Virus record (IMG/VR): IMGVR_UViG_2698536505_000013
Coordinates: 1-13,229 of that record
Origin: a virus
Lineage: Duplodnaviria > Heunggongvirae > Uroviricota > Caudoviricetes
Reading direction: 5' to 3' (one strand)
DNA: 13,229 nt
Shown here: in pieces, positions 1-13,229 of the stretch
Position numbering within the stretch: the first letter of the stretch is position 1
Layout: each line of letters begins with the position of its first letter
The notes under the pieces: generated by a model
Database searches by the model: none
Told to the model about the DNA's origin: nothing
The model's input: only the letters and a program-made list of their open reading frames with translations
Program-made: the position numbers and the translations under genes

Positions 1-82
1 GCCGGGGAGGAAGGAAACTACCGGATGGAAAGAGTCCCCCTAAAGCAGACTGACAGACATCACAAATCCCCGGGTGGGGATT

Positions 83-98
83 TGTGTATAAGAGACAG
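83..98. other. Exact 16-nt match to the core of the Tn5/IS50 transposase mosaic end (TGTGTATAAGAGACAG); 17/19 to the full 19-bp end
   Basis: Direct reading: positions 80-98 are ATTTGTGTATAAGAGACAG against the mosaic end AGATGTGTATAAGAGACAG. It is immediately preceded by a perfect hairpin, AAATCCCC-gggt-GGGGATTT (64-83). Bases upstream do not match the canonical Nextera adapter arms. Confidence 0.5.
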
Positions 99-364
99 CT
101 GTGCGGAGGGGCGATCAGCAACCAGGTATATGGGATAATCGCGGATTCAGGTGCTGATACTGAATTCACCGGGAGGCACCCGGCACCATGCTTTGCCACA
201 AAAGTGTTGTTTCTGTTTTTCTCAAACTATCATCATTATCCCTTTATTTCCGGCTGCGCATGGCGTGGCCTTTTTTTTACGACCAGCCACTGGCAGATGG
301 CCATCCTGTAATTTGATTCCGGTTCCGGCTTTTTAACTCTGTTCCTGTACACGGGAGAAATTCG

Positions 365-2215
365 ATGTCGATTAAACATTATGATGTTGTCAGGGCGGCG
401 TCGCCGTCAGACCTTGCGGAAAAGCTGACACATAAACTGAAAGAGGGCTGGCAGCCGTTTGGTAGTCCGGTGGCCATAACCCCTTATACCCTGATGCAGG
501 CGATTGCAGCAGAAGGTGATGTGGTGGTCAGTGGTGCAACTGAGCCGGAGTGGTACTACGTCATCGTACTGGCCGGGCAGTCCAATGCCATGGCTTACGG
601 TGAAGGGCTTCCGCTGCCGGATTCATACGATGCTCCGGATCCGCGCATTAAACAGCTGGCGCGCCGCAGTACAGTGACGCCGGGCGGGGCTGCCTGCAGA
701 TATAACGATATTATTCCGGCCGACCACTGCCTGCATGATGTGCAGGATATGAGTACGCTGAATCATCCGAAGGCAGACCTGAGCAAAGGGCAGTATGGCT
801 GTGTCGGCCAGGGCTTACATATTGCCAAAAAACTGCTTCCGTATATCCCGAATAACGCGGGGATCCTGCTGGTACCATGCTGTCGTGGTGGTTCGGCATT
901 CACCCAGGGCGCGGAGGGGACATTCAGTGCGGACGCGGGGGCCAGCCAGGATTCGGCGCGCTGGGGTGTGGGTAAACCGTTATATCAGGACCTGATTGCG
1001 CGCACTAAAGCTGCATTACAGAAGAACCCGAAAAATGTGTTGCTGGCGGTGTGCTGGATGCAGGGAGAGTTTGACATGAGCGCCGCCACCTACGCACAGC
1101 AACCTGCGCTGTTTACAGCCATGCTGAAGCAGTTTCGTGCTGACCTCACTGTGTTTAACGCGCAGTGTCATGGTGGCAGTGCTGTAAATGTGCCGTGGAT
1201 TTGTGGTGACACGACGTATTACTGGAAAAACACCTACGGCACGCAGTACAACACCATTTACGGGGCGTACAAAAACAGGGAGAGTGATGGCGTTTATTTT
1301 GTACCCTTCATGACAGACGGTAACGGCGTCAATACCGCCACTAACGCGCCGACAGAAGATCCGGATATTCCGGCATCAGGATATTACGGTGCGGCATCGA
1401 GAACGAATGGAAACCAGGTATCATCAAACCGCCCGACACATTTCAGTTCATGGGCGCGCAGGAGCATTATTCCGGATCGTCTGGCAACCGCTATTCTGAA
1501 CGCAGCCGGGCGCACCTCAGCCTTCATCAGTGGTAAGGCACCGGAAATCAAACCCTCGCCCGGCGGCAACACACCATCGGGTCCGTCTGCAGATACGTCC
1601 GTTCGCACAATCTCCCTGCTGCCGACAGCCGGAGAGGCTGCTGCGCAGGGCTGGACCATTAAGGACGGCGGAATTCAGTTGTCGGGTGGTGTATTTAAGA
1701 TCGCCAAGCAGAGCAATAAAACCTGGTCCCTGACGCATCCGGTGGATGACGCAATTACCCTGCTGACACAGGGCGGCAGACTGACCTGTAAGTTCCGCCT
1801 GTCAGGCGCACTGACCAACAATCAGTTCGGGCTGGGGATTTATCTGTATACGGACGCTCCCGTTCCTGATGGTGTGGCGATGACGGGTACCGGTAATCCG
1901 TTCCTGATGTCGTACTTCACTCAGACCACTGACGGTAGAGTGAATCTGATGCATCACAGGAAAGCCGGAAACACGAAGCTGGGGGAGTTCGGCGATTACG
2001 GTAACGACTGGCAGACGCTGGAGCTGGTGTTCACCGCCGGCAGTGCCACGGTTACTCCGAAACTGAATGGAGTGGCTGGCCCGGCATTCCAGGTCATAAA
2101 AGACAGTCTGACACTGGGGCTGAATGCGCTGACGCTGACGGATGTTACAAAAAATGCAGCGTATGGCGTTGAGATAGAAAGTCTGGTGCTGGAGATAAAT
2201 GCACCGGCAGCATAA
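365..2215 (+). CDS. nanS-p: Prophage sialate O-acetylesterase-like protein (NanS-p type): N-terminal DUF1737-like region, SGNH-hydrolase core, C-terminal beta-rich putative carbohydrate-binding domain
   Basis: 616-aa ORF with ATG start and a GGGAGA Shine-Dalgarno upstream. It has the GQSNA block typical of the sialate O-acetylesterase/SGNH family and sits directly upstream of the holin, as the 933W-type yjhS/nanS-p gene does. Double stop TAATAA. Confidence 0.8.
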   Translation: MSIKHYDVVRAASPSDLAEKLTHKLKEGWQPFGSPVAITPYTLMQAIAAEGDVVVSGATEPEWYYVIVLAGQSNAMAYGEGLPLPDSYDAPDPRIKQLARRSTVTPGGAACRYNDIIPADHCLHDVQDMSTLNHPKADLSKGQYGCVGQGLHIAKKLLPYIPNNAGILLVPCCRGGSAFTQGAEGTFSADAGASQDSARWGVGKPLYQDLIARTKAALQKNPKNVLLAVCWMQGEFDMSAATYAQQPALFTAMLKQFRADLTVFNAQCHGGSAVNVPWICGDTTYYWKNTYGTQYNTIYGAYKNRESDGVYFVPFMTDGNGVNTATNAPTEDPDIPASGYYGAASRTNGNQVSSNRPTHFSSWARRSIIPDRLATAILNAAGRTSAFISGKAPEIKPSPGGNTPSGPSADTSVRTISLLPTAGEAAAQGWTIKDGGIQLSGGVFKIAKQSNKTWSLTHPVDDAITLLTQGGRLTCKFRLSGALTNNQFGLGIYLYTDAPVPDGVAMTGTGNPFLMSYFTQTTDGRVNLMHHRKAGNTKLGEFGDYGNDWQTLELVFTAGSATVTPKLNGVAGPAFQVIKDSLTLGLNALTLTDVTKNAAYGVEIESLVLEINAPAA

Positions 2216-2224
2216 TAAAAAAAC

Positions 2225-2259
2225 AGCCAGTACTGACTTTCGTCGGAGAAGTACTGGCT
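2225..2259. terminator. Hairpin (9-bp stem AGCCAGTAC/GTACTGGCT, 17-nt loop) directly after the nanS-p stop; A7 run on the 5' side, so a canonical intrinsic terminator only for minus-strand transcripts
   Basis: Perfect inverted repeat seen in sequence. The T-tract is on the minus strand only; the plus-strand 3' flank (AAGAAGGATAG) is not U-rich. Confidence 0.35.
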
Positions 2260-2514
2260 AAGAAGGATAGTTGGGTTTCACATGATACTTATATCTGGCA
2301 GTACATTTTCTGACAGACAGTGACGGATGTTGTCAAGATATTGTGTCATTTATAACCTGAATCAGGGGTTGGTCGGAATGTTATCTGGCATTTTTAGCAG
2401 AGCCTGAATGCCATAATCACGGCTCCCGGCGTTGGCCGTCAGTGGGTGACACTGGCGGCTTTTTGTTTTCCTTTACTTTCATTTTCTGTCGGCGGTGACG
2501 GAGACATACATCAG

Positions 2515-2721
2515 ATGGAAAAAATCACAACAGGTGTGTCATACACCACGTCAGCGGTGGGGACGGGATACTGGTTACTGCAGCTGCTGGACAAAGTCTC
2601 TCCGTCCCAGTGGGTGGCGATAGGTGTGCTGGGGAGTCTGCTGTTTGGCCTGCTGACGTATCTGACTAACCTGTATTTCAAAATCAGAGAGGACCGTCGC
2701 AAGGCTGCCCGGGGAGAGTAA
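2515..2721 (+). CDS. S: Class II holin, phage 21 S21-like pinholin (68 aa)
   Basis: Translation [68 protein letters not shown] has two transmembrane segments and a charged C-terminus, and is close to the phage 21 holin as I recall it. GGAG lies 11 nt upstream of the ATG. The ORF track's longer GTG start at 2446 is a less likely alternative. Confidence 0.85.
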
Positions 2722-2725
2722 AGCG

Positions 2726-3058
2726 ATGAAGAAAAAATACGAACTGGTTGTTAAAGGGATAAATAATTACCCGGATAAGATTACTGTTACTGTGGCACTG
2801 GAAATTGGTGGGTATCCGTCACTGTTGTTGCCAGATGTGGCGATTAGTCTTGACCGTACTGAAGGAGCCACGCTGGAGTTTTACGAAGCTGAGGCGAAAA
2901 AGCAGGCGAAGCAGTTTTTCATGGATGTTGCTGCCGGGTTATGTGAAGGGGATGGTCCGTTGCCGGAAAAGCGGCCCATCATTTTAGAGGCGCAGGATGT
3001 GTTGATAATCTACAGAGGAAAACTACCGGGAATAATTACTGGTTCTCTGAAGACTTAA
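2726..3058 (+). CDS. Conserved hypothetical protein inside the lysis cassette (YdfR/DUF1327-like, from memory); function unknown
   Basis: 110-aa ORF whose ATG is 4 nt after the holin stop, with GGGGAGAG 7 nt upstream. It occupies the holin-endolysin slot, as ydfR does in the K-12 Qin prophage. Its composition is soluble and acidic. Confidence 0.7.
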   Translation: MKKKYELVVKGINNYPDKITVTVALEIGGYPSLLLPDVAISLDRTEGATLEFYEAEAKKQAKQFFMDVAAGLCEGDGPLPEKRPIILEAQDVLIIYRGKLPGIITGSLKT

Positions 3059-3100
3059 CATATCCAGGGATTTGAAATCGATAAACCCTGATAAATATCC

Positions 3101-3634
3101 ATGAACACCAAAATCAAATACGGCCTGTCGGCTGCCGTTCTGGCGCTGATTGCCGCAGGTGCGCCTGCGCCTGAAATCCTCGACCAGTTTCTGGATGAAA
3201 AGGAAGGTAACCACACCACGGCATACCGTGATGGTGCGGGTATCTGGACCATCTGCCGTGGAGCCACCCGGGTGGATGGTAAGCCTGTCCTCCCGGGCAT
3301 GAAGTTGTCGAAGGAAAAATGCGACCAGGTTAACGCCATTGAACGTGATAAGGCGCTGGCATGGGTGGCGAAAAACATCAGAGTGCCACTGACCGAACCC
3401 CAGAAAGCGGGTATTGCGTCATTCTGTCCGTACAACATTGGTCCCGGTAAGTGTTTCCCGTCTACGTTTTACAGACGAATTAATGCAGGTGATCGAAAAG
3501 GTGCCTGCGAAGCGATTCGCTGGTGGATTAAGGACGGTGGCAGAGACTGCCGTATTCGTTCAAACAACTGTTACGGTCAGGTATCCCGTCGTGACCAGGA
3601 GAGCGCGCTGGCGTGCTGGGGAATTGACAGATAA
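3101..3634 (+). CDS. R: SAR endolysin (T4-lysozyme-like muramidase with N-terminal signal-arrest-release domain)
   Basis: 177 aa. The N-terminal Gly/Ala-rich weakly hydrophobic segment GLSAAVLALIAAGAPA is followed by the catalytic E35-x8-D44-x5-T50 spacing of T4-type lysozymes. Pinholin plus SAR endolysin is the established pairing. No obvious Shine-Dalgarno precedes the ATG. Confidence 0.9.
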   Translation: MNTKIKYGLSAAVLALIAAGAPAPEILDQFLDEKEGNHTTAYRDGAGIWTICRGATRVDGKPVLPGMKLSKEKCDQVNAIERDKALAWVAKNIRVPLTEPQKAGIASFCPYNIGPGKCFPSTFYRRINAGDRKGACEAIRWWIKDGGRDCRIRSNNCYGQVSRRDQESALACWGIDR

Positions 3635-3723
3635 GCAGAATATTTTGCTGAAAAATGCGGTTTGCTCACACGGGCGGATAACACGAAATCCTGCGAACTG
3701 GCAAAAACTAAGTGAATAAAAGT

Positions 3724-3756
3724 AAAACCCCGTTTGTTGGCCGCAAGCGGGGTTTT
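3724..3756 (+). terminator. Stem-loop (9-bp stem AAAACCCCG/CGGGGTTTT, 15-nt loop) followed by a U-rich tract, in the R-Rz intergenic insert
   Basis: Perfect inverted repeat with 3' flank TTTTGTGTTT. The large loop is atypical for an intrinsic terminator, so this may instead be an RNA stability or processing element. Confidence 0.35.
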
Positions 3757-3792
3757 GTGTTTCCTGACTCCGGAAAAGTCAAAGGAGAAAGT

Positions 3793-3930
3793 GTGTTTGA
3801 TTTTAGCAAACTGATTCGGGAGATTCGAATGATGGCTGAAAAATTATCCACCTGGAAGTTCATCCTTATCTGGCTGGTGTTTGTGATTATGGCTTCCGGT
3901 TATTTCATTGGTCAGATACGCTGGTGGTGA
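3793..3930 (+). CDS. Small single-pass membrane protein (45 aa from GTG; alternative 33 aa from ATG at 3829) between endolysin and Rz
   Basis: AAAGGAG Shine-Dalgarno lies 5 nt before the in-frame GTG. Translation ...FDFSKLIREIRMMAEKLSTWKFILIWLVFVIMASGYFIGQIRWW has one clear transmembrane helix. Its stop TGA sits 1 nt before the Rz ATG, which suggests translational coupling. Confidence 0.4.
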   Translation: MFDFSKLIREIRMMAEKLSTWKFILIWLVFVIMASGYFIGQIRWW

Positions 3931-3931
3931 A

Positions 3932-4399
3932 ATGAACCGCGTACTGTGCGTGGTCATCATTGCCCTGCTGGTGGCCTGTGGTGCGCTTAGTCTGGGGCTG
4001 AATCATTACCGTGATAACGCCATAACCTACAAAGAGCAGCGCGATAAAAAAGTCAGTGAGCTGGAGCTGGCAAATGCAACCATTACTGATATGCAGGTGC
4101 GCCAGCGCGATGTTGCTGCGCTCGATGCAAAATACTCGAGGGAATTAGCCGATGCGAGAGCTGAAAATGAAACTCTGCGTGCTGATGTTGCCGCTGGTCG
4201 TAAGCGCCTGCGGATCAACGCCACCTGCTCCGGTACCGTGCGTGAAGCCACCGGCACCTCCGGAATGGATAATGCAACCGGCCCCCGACTGGCAGACACC
4301 GCTGAACGGGATTATTTCACCCTCAGAGAGCGGTTGATGACAATGCAGAAGCAACTGGAAGGGGCACAGGACTATATCCGCACTCAGTGCCTGAAATAA
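3932..4399 (+). CDS. Rz: Inner-membrane spanin subunit (i-spanin) Rz
   Basis: Translation from the ATG at 3932 (MNRVLCVVIIALLVACGALSLGLNHYRDNAITYK...RLADTAERDYFTLRERLMTMQKQLEG...) is collinear with lambda Rz: N-terminal transmembrane segment, coiled coil. The track's TTG start at 3908 is less likely. Confidence 0.9.
   Translation: MNRVLCVVIIALLVACGALSLGLNHYRDNAITYKEQRDKKVSELELANATITDMQVRQRDVAALDAKYSRELADARAENETLRADVAAGRKRLRINATCSGTVREATGTSGMDNATGPRLADTAERDYFTLRERLMTMQKQLEGAQDYIRTQCLK
4152..4337 (+). CDS. Rz1: Outer-membrane lipoprotein spanin subunit (o-spanin) Rz1, embedded in the +1 frame of Rz
   Basis: Translation MRELKMKLCVLMLPLVVSACGS... has a lipobox (LVVSAC) and a proline-rich mature part (PPAPVPCVKPPAPPEWIMQPAPDWQTPLNGIISPSE), nearly collinear with lambda Rz1. 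It lies wholly inside Rz. An alternative start is the ATG at 4167. Confidence 0.8.
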   Translation: MRELKMKLCVLMLPLVVSACGSTPPAPVPCVKPPAPPEWIMQPAPDWQTPLNGIISPSESG

Positions 4400-4749
4400 G
4401 TTTTGTTGATGCGCCGTATCGTCGCTGTATTCCCTCATTAACAGAGACCGCAGCCCGACAGGGAGACTCCTCTGCGCGAGTGTGCGGGGATAATCAAAAA
4501 CGATACACACCGGGGTTTACCGCGTTAACGGAGCGCGGCGTTGTCCCCTCATAGTCGCCTGTCCGGTGCGATGGTGGAAGAAGCCGGATGTTTATCACTA
4601 TTAATTGATGACACAGAAATGGATTCATTGAATTTCAGCACGTTTTTGTATTCGTGTTATTGAACATCTGTTTATTTTACTTTTAACATATTGATAATAA
4701 AAAGAGCTGTAAATCTTTAGATGAGTCGATTTTGTCCGGGGAAGTTCAA

Positions 4750-4890
4750 ATGGATTTTATGCTGACGGTTTCTGGTGTGGTTATCCTGTCCATTGCTTAT
4801 ACTGCAGATAAATATGGCTGCCATTTGTTATCACGTATTGGCGCTTATTGTTCGTTGATGCTGATTTTCTCGTCGCTTTTTTTTGAGTAA
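4750..4890 (+). CDS. Hypothetical 46-aa hydrophobic peptide in the AT-rich moron gap
   Basis: ATG ORF (MDFMLTVSGVVILSIAYTADKYGCHLLSRIGAYCSLMLIFSSLFFE) with two hydrophobic stretches and a weak GGGGAAG Shine-Dalgarno-like sequence upstream. It is below the 60-aa ORF-track cutoff and found by manual reading. I do not recognise homologs. Confidence 0.25.
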   Translation: MDFMLTVSGVVILSIAYTADKYGCHLLSRIGAYCSLMLIFSSLFFE

Positions 4891-5022
4891 GTTATATTAA
4901 TTATAACAAATAATTTTCTGTGTTATTTTTTCAGGCTATCCCGTCAGAGGGGAAGCCTGTACTGCCGGGGAGCGAATGGAAAACTGATGTGTCCGGTAAC
5001 TGCGTGTTCTGTGAACACCATG

Positions 5023-5208
5023 TTACTTAATTATGTAATTCATACCCGAACTCTCTGTTGACAGCCTTCTTCTGCAGGCTTCAATAACCCACGCTGAAAA
5101 GTTACTGGACCCTTTATGCTCAAGGGCGATGTTGATCTGTTCAATCATGTGATTGGGGAAACGGATATTGCGGGTTGTGGTTCTGCGGGTCCGGTTTTTC
5201 GATGACAT
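5023..5208 (-). CDS. YlcI-like (DUF3950-type) small basic protein, putative DNA-binding; 61 aa
   Basis: Minus-strand translation MSSKNRTRRTTTRNIRFPNHMIEQINIALEHKGSSNFSAWVIEACRRRLSTESSGMNYIIK. AAGGA lies 8 nt upstream of this ATG, which is why I prefer it to the track's longer 81-aa start. From memory it resembles DLP12 YlcI. It is divergent from the HNH gene. Confidence 0.6.
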   Translation of the reverse strand: MSSKNRTRRTTTRNIRFPNHMIEQINIALEHKGSSNFSAWVIEACRRRLSTESSGMNYIIK

Positions 5209-5249
5209 ATTTATTTCCTTTACTGATTGCCATATGACGGGGATTTTAC

Positions 5250-5615
5250 ATGGCTGAGCTTCGTACACTCCAGAGCAGAATCAAAACTCTGAACACCCGA
5301 CGGGTGAATATTCTGAAGGGGGAACAGCGTCGTGTCAGTGGCAGTGCACGTGTTTCCCTCAAGCGTCATATCTGGCTCAGGGATGCCGGGCAGTGCTGTC
5401 TCTGTGGTCGTGTGGTTGACCTCTGTGACAGTGAACTCGATCACCGCATTGCACTTCAGTTCGGTGGTGGTAATGAGGAGACGAATCTCTGGACGCTCTG
5501 TACCGAATGCCATCGCCAGAAGTCAGTCAGTGAAACGGCGAGTGGTATGCCGGACCCGACGCTGCCGGAGGTGTCCGGAGGTCATGGCAGGGCAGACGAT
5601 ATCATCGGACTGTGA
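5250..5615 (+). CDS. HNH endonuclease (terminase-associated, HK97 gp74-like)
   Basis: 121 aa with paired Cys motifs (CCLCGR ... CTECH) and an HNH core (ELDHRIALQFGGGNEETNLWTLCTECHRQK). GGGGA Shine-Dalgarno. It lies immediately upstream of the packaging region and terminase genes, as in HK97-like phages. Confidence 0.9.
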   Translation: MAELRTLQSRIKTLNTRRVNILKGEQRRVSGSARVSLKRHIWLRDAGQCCLCGRVVDLCDSELDHRIALQFGGGNEETNLWTLCTECHRQKSVSETASGMPDPTLPEVSGGHGRADDIIGL

Positions 5616-5704
5616 TCCGCCCCGGGGGGGGATCATCCGGCGAAAAAAACGATCGCCCCGGACACCGCCCCCCCTCTCATGCAGAGAAAAAATTCCTGTT
5701 TCAG

Positions 5705-5833
5705 GCCAGTTAACATGTTAACTGGCTGCCCGGGCATTTTTGCGGTTTTTATCTTTATTATTCAGTTTGTTGTGCGAAAAAAATGTTAACTGGCTTTTTC
5801 AGCAAATGTTAACCAGGCAGCAGTTAACATTTG
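5705..5833. other. Candidate cos / packaging-initiation region: cluster of palindromes and repeated TGTTAAC motifs in the HNH-terS intergenic space
   Basis: 22-bp perfect palindrome GCCAGTTAACATGTTAACTGGC (5705-5726); 10-bp palindrome TGCCCGGGCA (5727-5736); AAATGTTAACTGGC (5781-5794); inverted repeat CAAATGTTAAC-n9-GTTAACATTTG (5803-5833); intervening AT-rich tract; C/G homopolymer block CCGCCCCGGGGGGGG at 5617-5631. Confidence 0.45.
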
Positions 5834-5904
5834 CGGCATGAGACGCCGGGAAAAATGGGCTGAACCATACCCGGCTGAGTGCGTTATGGACCCGGGAGGA
5901 GGCT

Positions 5905-6468
5905 GTGCTGACAACGCAAAAACGAAAATTTGCGCTGGCGCTCATGTCCGGGAAAAACAAAACAGCGTCAGCCATTGCCGCCGGTTATTCGGCGAAGACC
6001 GCCAGGGTTAAAGGCTCGCAGCTGGCAAAAGATCCGGAGGTGCTCGCGTTTATAGCCCGTAAACAGTGCGAAACGGTGGAGGTGGATGAGGTTCCTGTTT
6101 ACCGGCAGAAAAAATCAGAGCAGGAGGATAAACCCCGTCGTCGTGAGGTGGCTGCAATAACACAGCCGGACGAAAACAATCCGGAGATGCCTCCGCCCGC
6201 GGTGATATCTCATGGTATTGAATATATGGAGGATGGTCTTCCCGATCCGGTGAAAGCTATGGGGCAGATCCTGGTGGAAAACCTGATAATTGACCCGAAA
6301 CTGGCACTGGATGCGGCCTGGCGACTGGCGCAGTTCACACACCATAAAAAAGGCGATGCCGGTAAAAAATCGGCAAAAGGTGATGCCGTGAAAAAAGCGG
6401 CTAACCGTTTTGCGGTGCCACCACCTCCCCGGCTGGTGGTGAATAACCAGAATGAGGAAAGCGGATGA
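5905..6468 (+). CDS. terS: Terminase small subunit
   Basis: 187 aa with GTG start and GGGAGGAGG Shine-Dalgarno. N-terminal HTH-like segment (KRKFALALMSGKNKTASAIAAGYSAKTARVKGSQLAKDPEV) and a basic, low-complexity C-terminus. Its stop overlaps the terL start (ATGA). Confidence 0.8.
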   Translation: MLTTQKRKFALALMSGKNKTASAIAAGYSAKTARVKGSQLAKDPEVLAFIARKQCETVEVDEVPVYRQKKSEQEDKPRRREVAAITQPDENNPEMPPPAVISHGIEYMEDGLPDPVKAMGQILVENLIIDPKLALDAAWRLAQFTHHKKGDAGKKSAKGDAVKKAANRFAVPPPPRLVVNNQNEESG

Positions 6469-8126
6469 TACCTGTATGGAGCACGGCATGTCCGGACTGG
6501 GCAGAGCGCCTGAAAAAGGGGCTGTCGATTATTCCGGCTCCGATTTATCCGGACCAGGCTGCACATGCACTGGCGATTTTTAAACAACTGCGAATTGTGG
6601 ATGCACCGGGTAGCCCGACATTCGGGGAGTCCTGTGCACCGTGGGTGTTTGACCTGGTGGCGGCCCTGTTTGGCTCCTACGATGCGCAGACCGGTGTTCG
6701 CCATATCAAGGAAGTGTTTATCCTTATCCCCAAGAAAAACAGTAAGTCCACGCTGGCCGCGGGGATCATGATGACGGCGCTGTTACTGAACTGGCGGCAG
6801 GCGGCGGGCTACACCATTCTGGCCCCGACCGTGGAGGTGGCGGCTAACGCCTTCAACCCTGCCAGGGATATGGTACGACGGGACGATGATCTGGATGACC
6901 TCTGTCAGGTGCAGACACATATCCGGACCATCACCCATCGGGTGACGGACACCACCCTGAAGGTGGTGGCAGCCGATCCGAATACGGTGTCCGGTATCAA
7001 GTCCGTGGGGACACTGATTGATGAACTGTGGCTGTTTGGCAAGCAGTACAAAGCGGAAGACATGCTACGTGAAGCCATCGGCGGGCTTGCCTCCCGTCCG
7101 GAAGGATTTGTGGTGTACACAACCACCCAGTCGAATGAACCGCCTGCCGGGGTGTTCAGACAGAAACTGCAGTACGCCCGGGATGTCCGTGACGGCAAAA
7201 TTCATGATCCGCACTTTCTGCCGGTGATATTTGAACACCCTCCTGAAATGGTGGAAAGCGGGGCTCACCTGCTGATGGAAAACCTCGCCATGGTTAACCC
7301 GAATCTCGGTTATTCGGTGGATGAGGCCTTTCTGTACCGGGAGTACCGTAAAGCCCGGGAAGCCGGTGAAGAGACATTCCGGGGGTTCATGTCAAAACAC
7401 GCCAATGTGGAAATTGGTCTTGCCCTGCGCTCTGACCGCTGGGCGGGGGCTGATTTCTGGGAAGAGCAGGGCCGTTGTATCAGCCTGGACGATATCCTGC
7501 GTCGTGCTGATGTGGTGACGGTGGGGATTGACGGCGGAGGGCTGGATGATCTGCTGGGGATGTATGTGATTGGGCGTGACCGGGAGACCCGCGAATGGCT
7601 GGGCTGGGGCCATGCCTGGGCGCATGAAACCGCGGTGGTCAGACGGAAGAGTGAGGCATCCCGGTTTCAGGATTTTGTGGCCTGTGGAGACATGACGATT
7701 GTCCGTCGGGTCGGGGATGACACGGCGGAAGTGGCGGAGTATGTGCGTCGTATTCATGAGGCTGAGTTACTGGATCATATCGGTATTGACCCGTCAGGTG
7801 TGGGGCAGATTCTGGATTCACTGGCGGAAGCCGGGATCCCCGATGAGAGTGTGGTGGGGATAAGCCAGGGCTGGAAGCTGGGCGGGGCCATCAAAACCAC
7901 CGAGCGCAAACTGGCTGAGGGAGTGCTGGTGCATGGTGGTCAGCCACTGATGGCCTGGTGCGTTGGCAATGCCCGGGTGGAGCCTAAAGGTAACGCCATT
8001 CTTATCACCAAACAGGCCAGCGGACGGGGAAAAATTGACCCACTGATGGCGCTCTTCAATGCGGTGTCCCTGATGTCCCTGAATCCGGAACCGAAAAAGA
8101 AAGCGTATGAGGTTTTTTTCATATAA
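6465..8126 (+). CDS. terL: Terminase large subunit (ATPase plus nuclease)
   Basis: 553 aa, translationally coupled to terS. It has a P-loop-like segment (ILIPKKNSKSTLAAG) and C-terminal acidic nuclease-like blocks (VVTVGIDGGG, IGIDPSGVG). Its position between terS and the capsid genes supports the call. Confidence 0.9.
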   Translation: MIPVWSTACPDWAERLKKGLSIIPAPIYPDQAAHALAIFKQLRIVDAPGSPTFGESCAPWVFDLVAALFGSYDAQTGVRHIKEVFILIPKKNSKSTLAAGIMMTALLLNWRQAAGYTILAPTVEVAANAFNPARDMVRRDDDLDDLCQVQTHIRTITHRVTDTTLKVVAADPNTVSGIKSVGTLIDELWLFGKQYKAEDMLREAIGGLASRPEGFVVYTTTQSNEPPAGVFRQKLQYARDVRDGKIHDPHFLPVIFEHPPEMVESGAHLLMENLAMVNPNLGYSVDEAFLYREYRKAREAGEETFRGFMSKHANVEIGLALRSDRWAGADFWEEQGRCISLDDILRRADVVTVGIDGGGLDDLLGMYVIGRDRETREWLGWGHAWAHETAVVRRKSEASRFQDFVACGDMTIVRRVGDDTAEVAEYVRRIHEAELLDHIGIDPSGVGQILDSLAEAGIPDESVVGISQGWKLGGAIKTTERKLAEGVLVHGGQPLMAWCVGNARVEPKGNAILITKQASGRGKIDPLMALFNAVSLMSLNPEPKKKAYEVFFI

Positions 8127-8151
8127 CCCTGCTCACCCTGTAACCATCATG

Positions 8152-8177
8152 AACCGCTGCGGCGGTTTTTTTATTTT
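8152..8177 (+). terminator. Intrinsic-terminator-like hairpin (6-bp stem AACCGC/GCGGTT, 4-nt loop) with T-tract, between terL and the protease-capsid gene
   Basis: Sequence AACCGCtgcgGCGGTTTTTTTATTTTC, followed at once by the CAGGAGG Shine-Dalgarno of the next gene. Confidence 0.5.
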
Positions 8178-8189
8178 CAGGAGGCTGAT

Positions 8190-10127
8190 GTGACTCTTAA
8201 ACGGGCCTGTTCCCTACTGACGGTGAAATCCTTCAGTGAGGATGAACGGGTGATCACCGGGATTGCGTCAACGCCTTCTCCGGATCGGGATGGTGACATC
8301 CTGGAGCCGGAGGGGGCGGAGTTTGGCAGTACGATCCCGTTTCTCTGGCAGCATGACCATTCCCGCCCTGTAGGCCAGTGTACGGTGCGTCGGGTCAGGG
8401 AAGGGCTGGAAATCACGGCAATGCTGGTGAAGCCGGAGCCGGGGATGCCCTCCCAGATGGCAGCCCGGCTGGATGAGGTCTGGGCGGCCATTAAGACCGG
8501 GCTGGTCAGGGGGCTGTCCGTGGGCTTCCGTCCCCATGAATACACCTTTCTGGACGGAGGCGGACTGCATTTTCTGCGCTGGGAACTGATGGAGGTGTCT
8601 GCCGTCACCGTGCCCGCGAATGCGGAATGCACCATCCGGACCATTAAATCTTACGACCGCCCGTTTTCTGCCGCGTCCGGCAACCGGAAACCGGTGGTGA
8701 AAATCGCATCTTCTGCCGGCGCTGCGGCACAGTCAACAACCGTTTTTCATAAGGAAAAGACCATAATGAATATTGGCGAACAGATTAAAAGTTTTGAAAA
8801 CAAGCGTGCAGCGCTGGCAGCCTCCCTTGAGGAGGTCATGACCAAAGCCGCAGAGGAAGGGCGCACGCTGGATGTGGAGGAGGAAGAGCATTACGACAAC
8901 ACCGCAGCGGAAATCCGTCAGGTGGATGCGCACCTGAAGCGCCTGCGTGAACTGGAAGCCGGTAAGGCCGCCACGGCGCAGCCGGTGAAACAGGCCGGTA
9001 ACGGGAATGTGGCCGCGGTGGCTTCAGCGCCGGTGATCCGTGTGGAGCAGAAACTGGAGAAGGGGATTGGCTTCGCCCGCTTTGCCAAATCGCTGGCTGC
9101 GGCTAAAGGCGTCCGATCTGAAGCCCTGGAAGTGGCCCGTCGTCAGTATCCGGATGACAGTCGTCTGCATCATGTCCTGAAATCGGCAGTGGGCGCGGGG
9201 ACCACCACGGATCCGCAGTGGGCAGGCAGCCTGTCTGAATATCAGGAATACGCACAGGACTTTATTGATTACCTGCGTCCGCAGACCATTATCGGGCGAT
9301 TTGGTCAGGGCGGGATCCCTGCACTTCGTCAGGTGCCGTTCAATATCCGTGTGCACGCCCAGGTGTCCGGCGGTGCTGCCGGCTGGGTGGGTGAGGGTAA
9401 GGCAAAACCCCTGACGAAGTTTGATTTTGAATCCATCACCTTCAGTCATGCGAAAGTGTCGGCCATTGCGGTACTGACGGAAGAATTGATCCGTTTTTCC
9501 AGTCCGGCTGCTGATGCACTGGTCCGTAATGCGCTGGCGGAAGCGGTAGTGGCGCGTCTGGATACAGACTTTGTGGACCCGAAAAAAGCGGCGGTGGCGG
9601 ATGTCTCCCCGGCGTCCATCACCCATGATGTGAAGGGCATGGCATCAACCGGTAACCCGGATGCGGATGCCGAGGCCGCGTTTGGCCAGTTTGTGACGGC
9701 AAATCTGCAGCCCACTGGTGCTGTCTGGCTGATGTCCAGCACGAATGCCCTGGCGCTGTCCATGCGTAAAAATGCGCTGGGTCAGAAGGAATACCCGGAC
9801 ATGACCCTGCTTGGCGGCACCTTCCAGGGCCTGCCGGTGATTGTCTCCCAGTACGTGGGTGACCAGCTGGTGCTGGTGAATGCGCCGGATATTTATCTGG
9901 CTGATGACGGCGGTGTGGCGGTGGATATGTCCCGTGAAGCGTCACTGGAGATGCAGTCTGAGCCGGGCGGCGACAGCACCACACCGTCCCCGGTGGAGCT
10001 GGTTTCCATGTTCCAGACAGGCAGCGTGGCCATCCGTGCGGAGCGCTGGATCAACTGGCGTCGTCGCCGTACTGCGGCGGTGGCGGTGATCACCGGAGTG
10101 AACTACGGCAGTGCGTCCGGCGGCTGA
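8190..10127 (+). CDS. Prohead protease (HK97/S78 family) fused in frame to an HK97-fold major capsid protein
   Basis: 645 aa from GTG with AGGAGG 5 nt upstream. The N-terminal ~170 aa carry protease motifs (WQHDH, GLSVGFRP, ELMEVSAVTVPAN). From M193 (internal ATG 8766, AAGGA 10 nt upstream) the sequence looks like a capsid delta domain and HK97-like capsid body. No stop separates the two parts. Confidence 0.85.
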   Translation: MTLKRACSLLTVKSFSEDERVITGIASTPSPDRDGDILEPEGAEFGSTIPFLWQHDHSRPVGQCTVRRVREGLEITAMLVKPEPGMPSQMAARLDEVWAAIKTGLVRGLSVGFRPHEYTFLDGGGLHFLRWELMEVSAVTVPANAECTIRTIKSYDRPFSAASGNRKPVVKIASSAGAAAQSTTVFHKEKTIMNIGEQIKSFENKRAALAASLEEVMTKAAEEGRTLDVEEEEHYDNTAAEIRQVDAHLKRLRELEAGKAATAQPVKQAGNGNVAAVASAPVIRVEQKLEKGIGFARFAKSLAAAKGVRSEALEVARRQYPDDSRLHHVLKSAVGAGTTTDPQWAGSLSEYQEYAQDFIDYLRPQTIIGRFGQGGIPALRQVPFNIRVHAQVSGGAAGWVGEGKAKPLTKFDFESITFSHAKVSAIAVLTEELIRFSSPAADALVRNALAEAVVARLDTDFVDPKKAAVADVSPASITHDVKGMASTGNPDADAEAAFGQFVTANLQPTGAVWLMSSTNALALSMRKNALGQKEYPDMTLLGGTFQGLPVIVSQYVGDQLVLVNAPDIYLADDGGVAVDMSREASLEMQSEPGGDSTTPSPVELVSMFQTGSVAIRAERWINWRRRRTAAVAVITGVNYGSASGG

Positions 10128-10142
10128 GTCTGATGAGGAGGA

Positions 10143-10162
10143 CGGGAGGCGTGCGCCTCCCG
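10143..10162 (+). other. GC-rich hairpin (8-bp stem CGGGAGGC/GCCTCCCG, loop GTGC) 16 nt downstream of the capsid gene stop; no U-tract
   Basis: Perfect inverted repeat seen in sequence. It may be a transcript-stabilising 3' structure for the capsid mRNA rather than a terminator. Confidence 0.4.
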
Positions 10163-10171
10163 TAACAGGTT

Positions 10172-10393
10172 ATGGCAAAGATCCGATATCTGCAGGGCAC
10201 GCATGATGCCCGGGCCGGGGATATCCGTGATGTGGCACAGCCGTGTGCGGAGGTGCTGGTTCGCCTGGGGAAGGCGGAGTACATCACAGTGCGACGTCCG
10301 GCAGGTCAGAAAAAGAAACGTGATGCGGAGCATGGCGAATGTGGAACCTTTTGCGGCGAACCCGAAAAAACCAGAAATCAGGACGTGATGTAA
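10172..10393 (+). CDS. Hypothetical 73-aa protein between capsid and portal genes
   Basis: ATG ORF with gene-like codon usage (MAKIRYLQGTHDARAGDIRDVAQPCAEVLVRLGKAEYITVRRPAGQKKKRD...). It overlaps the proposed portal start by 55 nt and has no obvious Shine-Dalgarno, so the call is tentative. Confidence 0.3.
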   Translation: MAKIRYLQGTHDARAGDIRDVAQPCAEVLVRLGKAEYITVRRPAGQKKKRDAEHGECGTFCGEPEKTRNQDVM

Positions 10394-11703
10394 AAGAGGT
10401 GGGCTGGACCAGCCTGTTTCAGGCGGTGGCTGAGCCTTTTGCCGGTGCCTGGCAGCAGGGCGTGAAAGCCGATCCGGAAAGTGTCCTCTCCTTTCATGCG
10501 GTGTTTTCTTGCATTTCGCTGATATCCCAGGATATCGCCAAAATGCGACTGCGCCTGATGCAGACCGATACACAGGGGATCCGCCGTGAAAAACGGCAGG
10601 GGGATATTGCCCGTCTCTGTCGTCGTCCCAATGCACAGCAGAATCGTATCCAGTTTTTTGAACTGTGGCTGAACGCCAAACTGCGTCACGGCAATACGGT
10701 GGTGCTGAAAATCCGTAACTCCCGGGGGCAGATCAAAGAACTGCGTATTCTGGACTGGAGCCGGGTTGAACCTCTGGTGGCGGATGACGGCGAGGTGTTC
10801 TATCGCATTACACCGGACCGGAACTGCGGGATCACGGAGGCGGTGACGGTGCCTGCCCGGGAAGTGATCCACGACCGGTTTAACTGTTTTTTTCATCCGC
10901 TTGTGGGGCTGCCGCCGGTGTATGCCGCCGGGCTGGCGGCCACGCAGGGGCATCATATTCAGGCAAATTCAACGTCTTTTTTCAGAAATGGCGGCAGGCC
11001 GTCCGGGGTGATTGAGATCCCCGGCAGTATAACGGAAGAAAATGCGAAAAAACTGAAGAGCAACTGGGACAGCGGGTATACCGGCGAAAATGCGGGGAAA
11101 ACGGCGATCCTGAGCAACGGGGCGAAATATAACCCCACGACGTTTTCACCGGTGGATGCGCAGACGGTGGAACAACTGAAGATGACGGCTGAAATTGTCT
11201 GTTCGGTGTTCCGTGTCCCGGCCTACAAGATTGGCGTTGGCCAGCCGCCTTCCAGTGACAACGTGGAGGCGCTGGAGCAGCAGTATTATTCCCAGTGTCT
11301 GCAGACGCTGATTGAGTCCATTGAGCTGTTACTGGATGAGGCGCTGGAAACGGGGGAAAACGAGAGCACGGAGTTTGACGTCACCACGCTGCTGAGAATG
11401 GACAGCGAACGGCGCATGAAAACACTGGGTGAATCGGTGAAAAATACGCTTCTCACGCCCAATGAGGCCCGTAAACGTGAGAACCTGCCGCCCCTGGCCG
11501 GCGGTGATGCACTGTATCTTCAGCAGCAGAACTACAGTCTGGAGGCGCTGTCCCGTCGTGATGCCCGTGAAGATCCGTTTGCGTCGTCCGGGAAAAGAGT
11601 TTCAGCCCAACTGCCTGACGGCGCATCTGACGGTAATAAGGCAATCAGTGAAACAGAGCATGGTGCGTTGAAAGCGATGTTGAGGGGGATACTGAGAAAA
11701 TGA
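10339..11703 (+). CDS. Portal protein (HK97-family portal)
   Basis: 454 aa from ATG. The N-terminal region PESVLSFHAVFSCISLISQDIAKMRLRL and C-terminal blocks (FRVPAYKIGVG, LLRMDSERRMKTLGE, LTPNEARKRENLPPLAGGDALY) are typical of HK97-type portals. The start is uncertain within about 60 nt. Confidence 0.85.
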   Translation: MWNLLRRTRKNQKSGRDVKEVGWTSLFQAVAEPFAGAWQQGVKADPESVLSFHAVFSCISLISQDIAKMRLRLMQTDTQGIRREKRQGDIARLCRRPNAQQNRIQFFELWLNAKLRHGNTVVLKIRNSRGQIKELRILDWSRVEPLVADDGEVFYRITPDRNCGITEAVTVPAREVIHDRFNCFFHPLVGLPPVYAAGLAATQGHHIQANSTSFFRNGGRPSGVIEIPGSITEENAKKLKSNWDSGYTGENAGKTAILSNGAKYNPTTFSPVDAQTVEQLKMTAEIVCSVFRVPAYKIGVGQPPSSDNVEALEQQYYSQCLQTLIESIELLLDEALETGENESTEFDVTTLLRMDSERRMKTLGESVKNTLLTPNEARKRENLPPLAGGDALYLQQQNYSLEALSRRDAREDPFASSGKRVSAQLPDGASDGNKAISETEHGALKAMLRGILRK

Positions 11704-12761
11704 CGGAACGGGAACTGTCCATTATTCGTGCACTGGGCGAAGAATTCGCCACGGTGCTGGCGGATTTACAGCACACATTTGAGGAGAAGATGGCCGCGCA
11801 GGCACAAGCGTTTGAAGAGAAACTGGCTTCCCTGTCGGCGGTATTACAGAAGCATGTGACGGTGGATGAGGTACATCCGGTTCTGCAGGCGATGGTGGAT
11901 GACGCTGTGGGGACCATTCCGGTACCGCGTGATGGTCGTGATTATGATCCGGATGTACTGCAGCAGGCGGTGAATGATGCGGTTGCGAATATTCCGGTAC
12001 CGGCGGACGGCAAAAGTATCACCCCCGATGATGTGCGTCCGATGCTTGAGCAGATGGTGAAAGAGGCTGTAAGCCATATCCCTGCTCCGCGTGACGGTCG
12101 TGATTATGATCCGGATGTACTGCAGCAGGCGGTGAATGATGCGGTTGCGAATATTCCGGTACCGGCGGACGGCAAAAGTATCACCCCCGATGATGTGCGT
12201 CCGATGCTTGAGCAGATGGTGAAAGAGGCCGTAAGCCATATCCCTGCTCCGCGTGATGGTCGTGATTACGATCCGGAAGTACTGAAGCAGGCGGTTCTGG
12301 AGGCGGTGAATGCCCTTCCGGCTCCGCAGGACGGGCGTGATGCCACGGCACTGGAAGTGCTCCCCGCCATTGACGATCAAAAATCCTTTCCCCGGGGCAC
12401 GTATGCCACACACCTTGGAGGACTCTGGCGGGCGTATGAAAAAACGCACGGGATGCGGGGATGGGAATGCCTGGTTGACGGGGTGGCGGATATTGACGTC
12501 AGTATGACGGGTGAGCGGTTGTTCTCTGTGGTGATCCGGCAGAGCAGTGGCCAGTGTACGGAAAAAACATTTTCCCTGCCGGTGATGCTCTACCGCGGAG
12601 TGTTCAGAGCCGGTGAAACCTACCACCCCGGCGATACGGTGACGTGGGGGGGCTCGCTGTGGCACTGCAACAGTATGACCGCCGATAAACCGGGGGATGC
12701 GCATGCATCTGGCTGGACGCTGGCTGCCAAACGGGGACGGGATGCTGGAGGCGGAAAATGA
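11700..12761 (+). CDS. Repeat-containing structural protein: N-terminal coiled coil, six ~27-aa repeats, C-terminal carbohydrate-binding-like domain; candidate head decoration/fibre protein
   Basis: 353 aa, ATG overlapping the portal stop (ATGA), GAGGGGGA Shine-Dalgarno. The repeats have the form V..L.QAV.DAV..IP.P.DG. The C-terminus (YRGVFRAGETYHPGDTVTWGGSLWHCNSMTADKPGDAHASGWTL) resembles CBM5/12-type modules. Its stop overlaps the next gene. Confidence 0.8.
   Translation: MTERELSIIRALGEEFATVLADLQHTFEEKMAAQAQAFEEKLASLSAVLQKHVTVDEVHPVLQAMVDDAVGTIPVPRDGRDYDPDVLQQAVNDAVANIPVPADGKSITPDDVRPMLEQMVKEAVSHIPAPRDGRDYDPDVLQQAVNDAVANIPVPADGKSITPDDVRPMLEQMVKEAVSHIPAPRDGRDYDPEVLKQAVLEAVNALPAPQDGRDATALEVLPAIDDQKSFPRGTYATHLGGLWRAYEKTHGMRGWECLVDGVADIDVSMTGERLFSVVIRQSSGQCTEKTFSLPVMLYRGVFRAGETYHPGDTVTWGGSLWHCNSMTADKPGDAHASGWTLAAKRGRDAGGGK
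11925..12248 (+). repeat. In-frame tandem duplication, 2 x 162 bp (160/162 identical), plus a diverged partial third copy (12249-~12340)
   Basis: Copy 1 is 11925-12086 and copy 2 is 12087-12248. They differ at two positions (gatggt/gacggt and gaggct/gaggcc). Each encodes a 54-aa unit, PRDGRDYDPDVLQQAVNDAVANIPVPADGKSITPDDVRPMLEQMVKEAVSHIPA. Confidence 0.95.
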
Positions 12762-13084
12762 CGGCATTACTGACACTGGAAGAGATCAAGGCACATCTGC
12801 GTGTCGACTATGACGCGGATGATGACATGCTGATGGACAAGGTTCGTCAGGCTACCGCCGTGCTGCTGGCCTACATTCAGGGCAGCCGGGATAAGGTGAT
12901 TCGTGAGGACGGTGAGCTGATCCCGGGCGAGGCATTAACCCGGATGAAGGGGGCTGCCATGCGACTGACCGGGATGCTGTACCGGAATCCGGATCTTGCT
13001 GAGCGGGAAGACCTCGTGCAGGGGGAACTGCCGTTTTCTGTGTCCGTGCTGATTTACGATTTGCGTTGTCCGACGGTGTTATGA
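12758..13084 (+). CDS. Head-tail connector / adaptor protein (gp6-like)
   Basis: 108 aa, ATG overlapping the upstream stop (ATGA), GGAGG Shine-Dalgarno. The N-terminus MTALLTLEEIKAHLRVDYDADDDMLMDKV matches the characteristic start of gp6-like connector proteins. Confidence 0.8.
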   Translation: MTALLTLEEIKAHLRVDYDADDDMLMDKVRQATAVLLAYIQGSRDKVIREDGELIPGEALTRMKGAAMRLTGMLYRNPDLAEREDLVQGELPFSVSVLIYDLRCPTVL

Positions 13085-13229
13085 GGAGGGAGGAATGGCA
13101 ATATCGTAAGCGACTCGTCAGAACCGTATTGATATTTACTGAGAGCTCAGATCAACTTTCCAGGGCAACAGATCGCGTACCCGGTTTGCCGGCCAGTCCT
13201 GGATATGTTCAATGACGTAACGCAGCCAC

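Follow-up and report, generated by a model that had tools for sequence, protein, structure and literature searches.

In phages SPP1 and Mu, the gene directly after the portal gene encodes a protein (gp7 and F, respectively) that binds the portal inside the capsid and is fused to the portal in some phages, and the P22 portal itself has a long helical C-terminal extension, the barrel, that reaches into the capsid. Fibritin of T4 (wac), encoded among neck genes, has an N-terminal anchor, short helical segments broken by loops and a distinct C-terminal domain, and is dispensable. Carbohydrate-binding modules of families 5 and 12 (CBM5/12), such as those of Serratia ChiB, Streptomyces griseus ChiC and Erwinia EGZ, sit on glycoside hydrolases, and an N-terminal anchor followed by a repetitive stalk and a CBM-like distal domain is found in the tail fibers of Agrobacterium phage 7-7-1 (9rkv), in gp47 of Pseudomonas phage Pa193 (9b45) and in BFVD proteins named 'collagen triple helix repeat'. 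The subject of this analysis is an open reading frame, here called ORF X, located between the portal gene and the head-tail connector gene in 13,229 nucleotides (nt) of DNA from a virus of the Caudoviricetes (IMG/VR record IMGVR_UViG_2698536505_000013, positions 1 to 13,229; this whole stretch is termed the window). ORF X is best read as neither a fragment of the portal nor a host-specific receptor fiber; the interpretation tentatively preferred here is that its product is a virion protein, accessory and non-essential, which works with the portal and forms a stalk tethered to the portal tail, probably on the lumenal side.

The ORF X protein has the same order of anchor, repetitive stalk and CBM-like distal domain as the fibers of 7-7-1 and Pa193 and the BFVD proteins, but collagen-stalk tail and baseplate fibers are products of tail-module genes and have fast-evolving tips, whereas ORF X lies beside the portal gene, is sometimes fused to it, and has an unusually conserved tip. 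Unlike ORF X, SPP1 gp7, Mu F and the P22 barrel have neither a repeat stalk nor a CBM-like tip, and they have no sequence relationship to it; the Mu F domain (PF04233) had no match in ORF X at E<=1 in a Pfam scan, although the gene position is alike. No homology to T4 fibritin was detected, and fibritin differs in its longer coiled-coil segments, in its foldon C-terminus and in not being linked to the portal C-terminus. Compared with the CBM5/12 modules of glycoside hydrolases, the module of ORF X is carried by a phage protein, appears to be tandemly duplicated inside a domain of 143 amino acids (aa) with a conserved core of its own, and falls below the Pfam cut-off, with sugar binding putative. 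The parts are known (CBM5/12-like modules, repeat stalks, and minor proteins adjacent or fused to the portal); the literature searched yielded no description of their combination, of a connection with the portal tail or of so extremely conserved a tip. The portal gene, ORF X and the connector gene are laid out in the window as follows.

10339-11703, + strand: portal gene of the HK97 family, 454 aa (Pfam Phage_portal, E=7e-81)
11684-11688, + strand: run of five G residues (G5); relatives with six (G6) at the same spot have portal and ORF X in one frame
11700-12761, + strand: ORF X, 353 aa, candidate portal-partner stalk protein; ATGA overlaps at both ends; full-length match to PHROG 1289
11700-11915, + strand: N-terminal helical region of ORF X, aa 1-72, helices 3-50 and 55-72 in the AlphaFold2 (AF2) model; putative anchor or oligomerization segment
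11916-12314, + strand: stalk of five units, each a PxPxDG loop plus a helix of 13-17 aa (A25/B29/A25/B29/A25 aa); acidic, length-variable
11925-12248, + strand: two 162-nt units (54-aa A+B), with a third, partial copy to 12295
12330-12758, + strand: conserved C-terminal all-beta domain, aa 211-353
12606-12674, + strand: stretch under the Pfam CBM_5_12 match, aa 303-325, below the gathering threshold
12758-13084, + strand: head-tail connector, gp6-like, Ad1 (Pfam Phage_connect_1, E=1e-7; PHROG 40); start overlaps the ORF X stop

The start codon of ORF X overlaps the portal stop (ATGA, 11700-11703) and its stop codon overlaps the connector start (ATGA, 12758-12761), which bears out the separate gene between portal and head-tail connector that had been proposed in the initial annotation, made from the sequence alone; missed at that time was that ORF X, as sequence comparison indicates, is an in-frame C-terminal part of the portal protein in many relatives (G6 versus G5). 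The single difference at the junction between the window and these fused relatives is G5 (11684-11688) in place of G6. Portal and ORF X form one ORF of 807, 861 or 1021 aa in E. coli prophages and a fusion of 859 aa in phages 2851 (presumably infectious) and WGPS6, and the split form is found in phage BP-4795, which we take to be viable. A second fusion, a 1237-aa protein with a different junction, is encoded on 115-kb metagenome contigs from two sources, and the fusion of ORF X to the portal thus arose independently at least twice. Exact-pattern scans of IMG/VR found G5 in 48 contigs, G6 in 41, and G4 or G7 in none; allele-specific searches of complete E. coli genomes in RefSeq found G5 in approximately 712 places in 370 genomes and G6 in 1338 places in 752 genomes, the one-ORF fused state being that of about two-thirds of the related E. 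coli prophage copies. The state of the tract mostly tracks lineage, the G5 lineages are more diverse, and the only clusters mixed for G5 and G6 are three or four tight ones, in which recent changes or read errors are possible. Phase variation at the tract was rejected because G4 and G7 are absent from IMG/VR and the G state goes mostly by lineage, and sequencing error as the source of G5 was rejected because of the approximately 712 places, 370 complete genomes and diverse lineages in which it occurs. ORF X is open and at least 245 aa long in 36 of 39 complete G5 copies. The ratio of nonsynonymous to synonymous polymorphism (pN/pS) of the C-terminal 148 codons is 0.20 in G5 and 0.16 in G6, which places the tip under purifying selection in split and fused forms alike, and selection is weaker in the N-terminal helical region (pN/pS 0.40-0.65). 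That the fused proteins are functional portals is suggested by the hundreds of genomes in which the long ORF is intact and under selection, and also by phage 2851.

The last approximately 55 residues of the portal are a flexible tail, rich in Ser, Ala and Pro, that ends in a short amphipathic segment (ALKAMLRGILRK). In an alignment of portal tails, this amphipathic end is present in five portals that are accompanied by ORF X and absent from three that are not (those of Moraxella, Burkholderia and Ralstonia phages, in which the connector gene directly follows the portal gene), and the 1237-aa fusion has a comparable segment upstream of its junction. The conserved gene order and overlaps, at least two fusions to the portal C-terminus, and the co-occurring amphipathic segment together tie ORF X to the portal.

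Other observations concern the junction itself. The last seven codons of the portal gene (11683-11703), which include the G5 tract, are AGG GGG AUA CUG AGA AAA UGA, most of which are rare in E. coli; the codon before the tract is TTG in the window (11682) and TTC in other copies, with exact matches in 4 complete E. coli genome records for the former and approximately 367 for TTC-G5. An identical 11-mer (GAAAATGACGG) that contains the ATGA overlap is present at both ends of ORF X (11693-11703 and 12751-12761), and recombination between the two copies would remove ORF X precisely, coupling the portal gene straight to the connector gene. Phage phi330, which forms plaques and has public virion mass-spectrometry data, was considered as a test of viability and set aside, its record being unreliable (G6 plus extra frameshifts at the locus and in essential tail genes); genes for tRNA-Ile and tRNA-Arg are present in related Shiga toxin (Stx) phages such as phi330 (46784-47027).

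A HMMER scan with the C-terminal domain retrieved 5355 cluster representatives. Most of the best 150 are separate proteins, 200-500 aa long, that carry the domain at their C-terminal end, and none of these 150 is fused to the downstream connector. The order of portal, ORF X homolog and Ad1 connector, with overlapping stops and starts, recurs in prophages of E. coli, Pseudomonas syringae and Variovorax, in Rhizobium phage RHph_X2_26 and in Stenotrophomonas phage SOVA965; a metagenomic contig likewise has its homolog between portal and connector, and three Pseudomonas aeruginosa phages carry a homolog. Distant homologs with readable DNA each have a start of their own, preceded in three by a Shine-Dalgarno-like sequence. 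Because a separate gene is normal outside E. coli, the G5 split of E. coli mirrors the ancestral arrangement, and G6 is a derived in-frame fusion. Phages of Moraxella, Burkholderia and Ralstonia share the head module but lack the homolog, which makes ORF X an accessory gene. In one metagenome contig (P0270), a protein of 368 aa with a PKD domain is inserted between the portal and the ORF X homolog, which suggests that the gap from portal to connector may be a slot for accessory virion genes. In RHph_X2_26, a gene of the SGNH-hydrolase type (151-1365 of the examined stretch) lies directly upstream of the portal gene.

PHROG 1289 matches ORF X from end to end, and PHROG 2271, an 859-aa 'portal', spans portal plus ORF X; ORF X has no match to Phage_portal (PF04860) or portal_HK97 (TIGR01537), none to any NCBIfam model, and in the fused relatives the portal domain is limited to residues ~45-388, such that the 'portal' label of ORF X in PHROG is explained by the fused forms. 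For a locus in NZ_CP148357 with 98% identity, the NCBI Prokaryotic Genome Annotation Pipeline (PGAP) gives 'phage portal protein, frameshifted', a pseudogene label that, to judge from the sequences, is misleading for ORF X. Homologs of 405 aa in Enterobacter and Cronobacter are named 'gp6-like head-tail connector' by NCBI; no connector domain was found in them by precomputed Pfam annotation or in P0278 by a Pfam scan. PF28083 is present in the precomputed annotation of relatives and was not returned by the Pfam scans of this analysis.

The stalk of ORF X is built of repeats. Tandem Repeats Finder reported a period of 162 nt at 11925-12295 (2.3 copies, 97% matches, score 707), and in the best register 11925-12086 and 12087-12248 are identical at 160 of 162 positions, far above chance, as expected from the near-perfect tandem duplication recognized in the initial annotation. 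The six repeats of about 27 aa that it counted correspond to six units led by PxPxDG (aa 73-97, 98-126, 127-151, 152-180, 181-205 and 206-232), which alternate between types of 25 aa (A) and 29 aa (B). Among 96 related loci, the number of 54-aa A+B units ranges from zero to at least five, three being commonest and the window having two, and the ORF X part is accordingly 245, 299, 353, 407, 461, 515 or 569 aa long; ORF X thus contains a variable-number tandem repeat in a coding region, with in-frame units arranged head to tail and varying in number from one close relative to another, and the predicted hotspot of length variation is real. The accompanying prediction that the repeats would collapse assemblies agrees with the 'partial' portal proteins, numbering in the hundreds, whose contigs measure 1.6-6 kb, a pattern that fits breakage of short-read assemblies at the array. 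The proposal of a recent duplication needs restating: the pair in the window is recent, but the alternating A/B design, with near-identical copies of its own, is also found in Pseudomonas and Enterobacter homologs, a metagenomic homolog has approximately 25 units, and mean identity of repeat units is 95.3% within arrays versus 93.0% between arrays. On these sequence grounds the repeats are better described as an old A/B array under continuing unequal exchange, in which the 160/162 pair of the window is a recent event.

The AF2 model of the ORF X protein begins with a helix at aa 3-50 (pLDDT >90; 89-97 for aa 1-50), followed by another helix, by five loop-plus-helix units predicted with modest confidence, and by an all-beta C-terminal domain with pLDDT of approximately 97. 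The family as a whole has an N-terminal helix, a repetitive stalk and a conserved tip, with a stalk made either of PxPxDG-helix units or of a collagen-like Gly-X-Y run; the latter is found in homolog P0128 (Pfam Collagen, E=3e-21) and in the SOVA965 protein, and no Gly-X-Y collagen repeats (PF01391) are present in the ORF X protein of the window. The design of the family is fiber-like, and the collagen-like forms of the stalk imply trimers. The whole protein is acidic, with an isoelectric point (pI) of 4.8 and a net charge of -21; the tip, for which the family median pI is 6.2, is near neutral, and DNA binding by the tip is unlikely. A search of PDB sequences with the whole protein returned only chance matches to designed helical repeat proteins.

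The AF2 fold of the tip and its comparison with known folds are CBM5/12-like, the small antiparallel beta fold of approximately 45 aa being present, and two sequence motifs suggest that the tip may consist of two such modules in tandem. The resemblance of the C-terminus to CBM5/12 that was noted at first holds for the fold, but not for the Pfam profile: CBM_5_12 (PF02839) matches aa 303-325 at 18.9 bits (E=0.0015), short of the gathering score of 26.2; homolog P0128 passes the threshold at 28.6 bits, and other homologs score 18-23 bits. The tip of the E. coli window is 56-64% identical to its counterparts in the Pseudomonas, Variovorax and metagenomic modules, compared with 48-57% for the large terminase subunit (TerL), 45-60% for the major capsid protein (MCP), 48-51% for the portal and 33-46% for the connector; no other part of the head module is as well conserved among elements of E. 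coli, Pseudomonas and Variovorax. Host-specific receptor-binding tips usually vary fastest. A tip more conserved than TerL, MCP and portal across distant hosts must have a ligand shared by all these systems, for which a peptidoglycan-type glycan or a conserved virion component are the candidates; the conservation argues against host-specific glycan recognition, and hence against O-antigen, capsule or mucosal glycans, and with these the binding of host or mucosal glycans envisaged in the initial annotation.

From the observed gene order, fusions, selection, repeat variation and fold, we infer how ORF X docks to the portal tail, its oligomeric state, where it is placed and what it binds, as follows. 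Translation by stop/start coupling behind the portal gene would yield ORF X protein in portal-like amounts, and its N-terminal helix would dock on the amphipathic segment that ends the flexible C-terminal tail of the portal. In many E. coli relatives, one extra G would make this link covalent (the 807-1021-aa 'portal proteins'), and an unrelated lineage would have done likewise, independently. The acidic loop-plus-helix stalk would extend from the anchor, its unit number free to change by unequal recombination, and in other lineages a collagen-like triple helix would replace it, suggesting trimers. The stalk would end in the tandem CBM5/12-like beta domain, with a ligand common to E. coli, Pseudomonas and Variovorax hosts. 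In published portal structures the portal C-termini are located in the crown, facing the capsid lumen; if the fused proteins are functional portals, their ORF X part therefore starts on the lumenal side, and the lumenal side of the portal vertex would be the most economical placement. A more specific form of this proposal, which is on balance unlikely, is that ORF X is a component of the capsid lumen suspended from the portal crown, as a free protein in G5 phages and by a covalent link in G6 phages, with the acidic stalk along the portal axis and a tip that binds a peptidoglycan-type glycan and either exits via the tail during infection or works at the mouth of the channel.

Several observations weigh against a portal-tethered lumenal stalk. 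A fiber-like layout with a collagen-like or segmented-helix stalk and a CBM5/12-like tip is otherwise known from external phage fibers; outside chitinases the best structural matches of the tip are tail fibers (9rkv, 8fqc, 9b45), and many collagen-repeat phage proteins are among the matches in BFVD. The position of the PKD-domain gene beside an ORF X homolog in one contig favors an external location. The CBM_5_12 match of ORF X is below threshold, and the nearly invariant aromatic residues of the tip (Y230, W243, W255, Y308, W321, W339) are at most candidate equivalents of the sugar-contacting residues of CBMs. The co-occurrence of amphipathic segment and ORF X was seen in only 8-9 portals and could partly reflect the overlap with the ORF X translation start; the fused forms retain the internal ATG, from which a free ORF X product might still be made, the fusion then being merely tolerated. 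A literature search found no study of the ORF X protein, including any placement in the virion by experiment. Finally, homology to related prophages ends 11 nt into the head-closure gene and the remaining 124 nt of the window (13106-13229) are the end of an IS66-family (ISCro1-like) element, such that the window prophage copy, interrupted in its morphogenesis module just downstream of the connector gene, probably makes no virions itself; family-level conclusions are based on the relatives and not on this interrupted copy.

Some of the same observations favor an external whisker at the neck or portal vertex, namely trimeric fibers that the N-terminal helix anchors at the head-tail junction and that project outward, with a CBM5/12-like tip that binds a surface or environmental glycan and aids adsorption. 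The succession of anchor helix, stalk and CBM-like tip, the structural matches to tail-fiber tips and BFVD proteins, and the adjoining PKD-domain gene all fit such whiskers, as do the free variation of stalk length and the location of the gene among neck genes. The at least two independent in-frame fusions, however, are to an end of the portal located within the capsid; across very different hosts, conservation of the tip exceeds that of TerL, portal and MCP; and these hosts include plant and soil bacteria, for which mucosal glycans are no general ligand. A whisker, the main rival reading, is possible but rather doubtful. The decoration or fiber protein proposed in the initial annotation is similarly divided, with the fiber-like layout and the collagen repeats of homologs in its favor and the fusions to the portal C-terminus, which fit external decoration poorly, against it.

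Less probable again is an assembly factor absent from the mature virion, a portal chaperone or scaffold-like helper that the S78 prohead protease, itself joined to the capsid protein, might remove. Such a role would accord with the stop/start coupling to the portal gene and the linkage to the portal tail, with a head module in which protease, scaffold-like region and MCP are one ORF and no separate scaffold gene exists, and with the lack of ORF X in some related modules, but known scaffolds and chaperones have neither collagen-like stalks nor a CBM-like tip that is rich in aromatic residues and strongly conserved, and no result of this analysis points to cleavage. Ribosomal slippage, which is given little credence, would make both products in G5 phages: tRNA-Gly slipping by -1 on G_GGG before the rare AUA codon, or tRNA-Lys on A_AAA before UGA, would produce some portal-ORF X fusion and set the ratio of plain to extended portal. 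Both slips, as read from the sequence, land in the ORF X frame and recreate the G6-type junction, and the codons concerned lie among the mostly rare ones that end the portal gene; against this, the downstream RNA has no stimulatory structure (fold z-score -0.5) and no Rfam match, G6 phages read these bases as ordinary codons of the frame, and distant homologs have ordinary, Shine-Dalgarno-led separate starts without such a tract. The locus therefore has readable single-tRNA slip sites but neither the stable downstream structure nor the conservation in distant homologs of a programmed frameshift site. Decay of a frameshifted portal gene, to which the PGAP label in NZ_CP148357 and the single-G difference from intact long portals might point, is hardly credible and largely refuted by the length of ORF X in G5 copies (at least 245 aa in 36/39), the tip pN/pS of 0.20 in diverse and widespread G5 lineages, the split form of BP-4795, a phage taken to be viable, and the separate gene of distant elements.

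The window as a whole covers the late region of a lambdoid E. coli prophage of the Stx-phage type, the closest records being Stx1a, Stx2a and Stx2c converting phages and prophages of enterohemorrhagic E. coli (EHEC), with 92-98% identity.

365-2215: gene with DUF1737 and SASA esterase domains, at the start of the window, followed by lysis genes and then by HNH, TerS and TerL genes
8190-10127: prohead-protease/major-capsid fusion, followed by a small ORF before the portal gene

The first of these encodes 616 aa with DUF1737, a SASA sialate-O-acetylesterase domain and DUF6645, and is presumably an esterase of the NanS-p type typical of Stx phages. According to the abstract of a 2026 preprint, the capsid of phage phi24B is decorated by a processed esterase. 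The second is one ORF of 645 aa that joins a Peptidase_S78 prohead protease to an HK97-type major capsid protein through a coiled-coil-like linker, and no separate scaffold gene is present; the same protease-capsid fusion is found in Pseudomonas and metagenomic relatives. The 3' part of the small terminase gene contains a 27-nt tandem duplication (6348-6401; 2.0 copies, 85% matches). An antisense ORF of 310 aa (11844-12776) is unsupported and was treated as a shadow of the gene on the + strand.

Approximately 1,250 of 5,426 complete E. coli genomes carry the ORF X locus, often several times and including Shiga-toxin phages. 'Portals' of 800-1,200 aa are fusions of a portal with its partner, the separate gene being ancestral and under selection, and the annotation of this very common prophage gene is corrected accordingly. 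Breaks between contigs at this locus when EHEC prophages are assembled from short reads are explained by the repeat array, which could also serve as a typing marker, and the naturally split and fused alleles, together with the series of repeat numbers, constitute ready-made genetic variants. The structural question raised is what role a fiber-like protein tipped with a glycan module plays on the C-terminal tail of a portal. If it were in fact a component of the capsid lumen, ORF X would represent a new class of phage proteins, fiber-like in appearance and either internal or ejected, and the G5/G6 polymorphism would be a natural experiment comparing its tethered and releasable forms.

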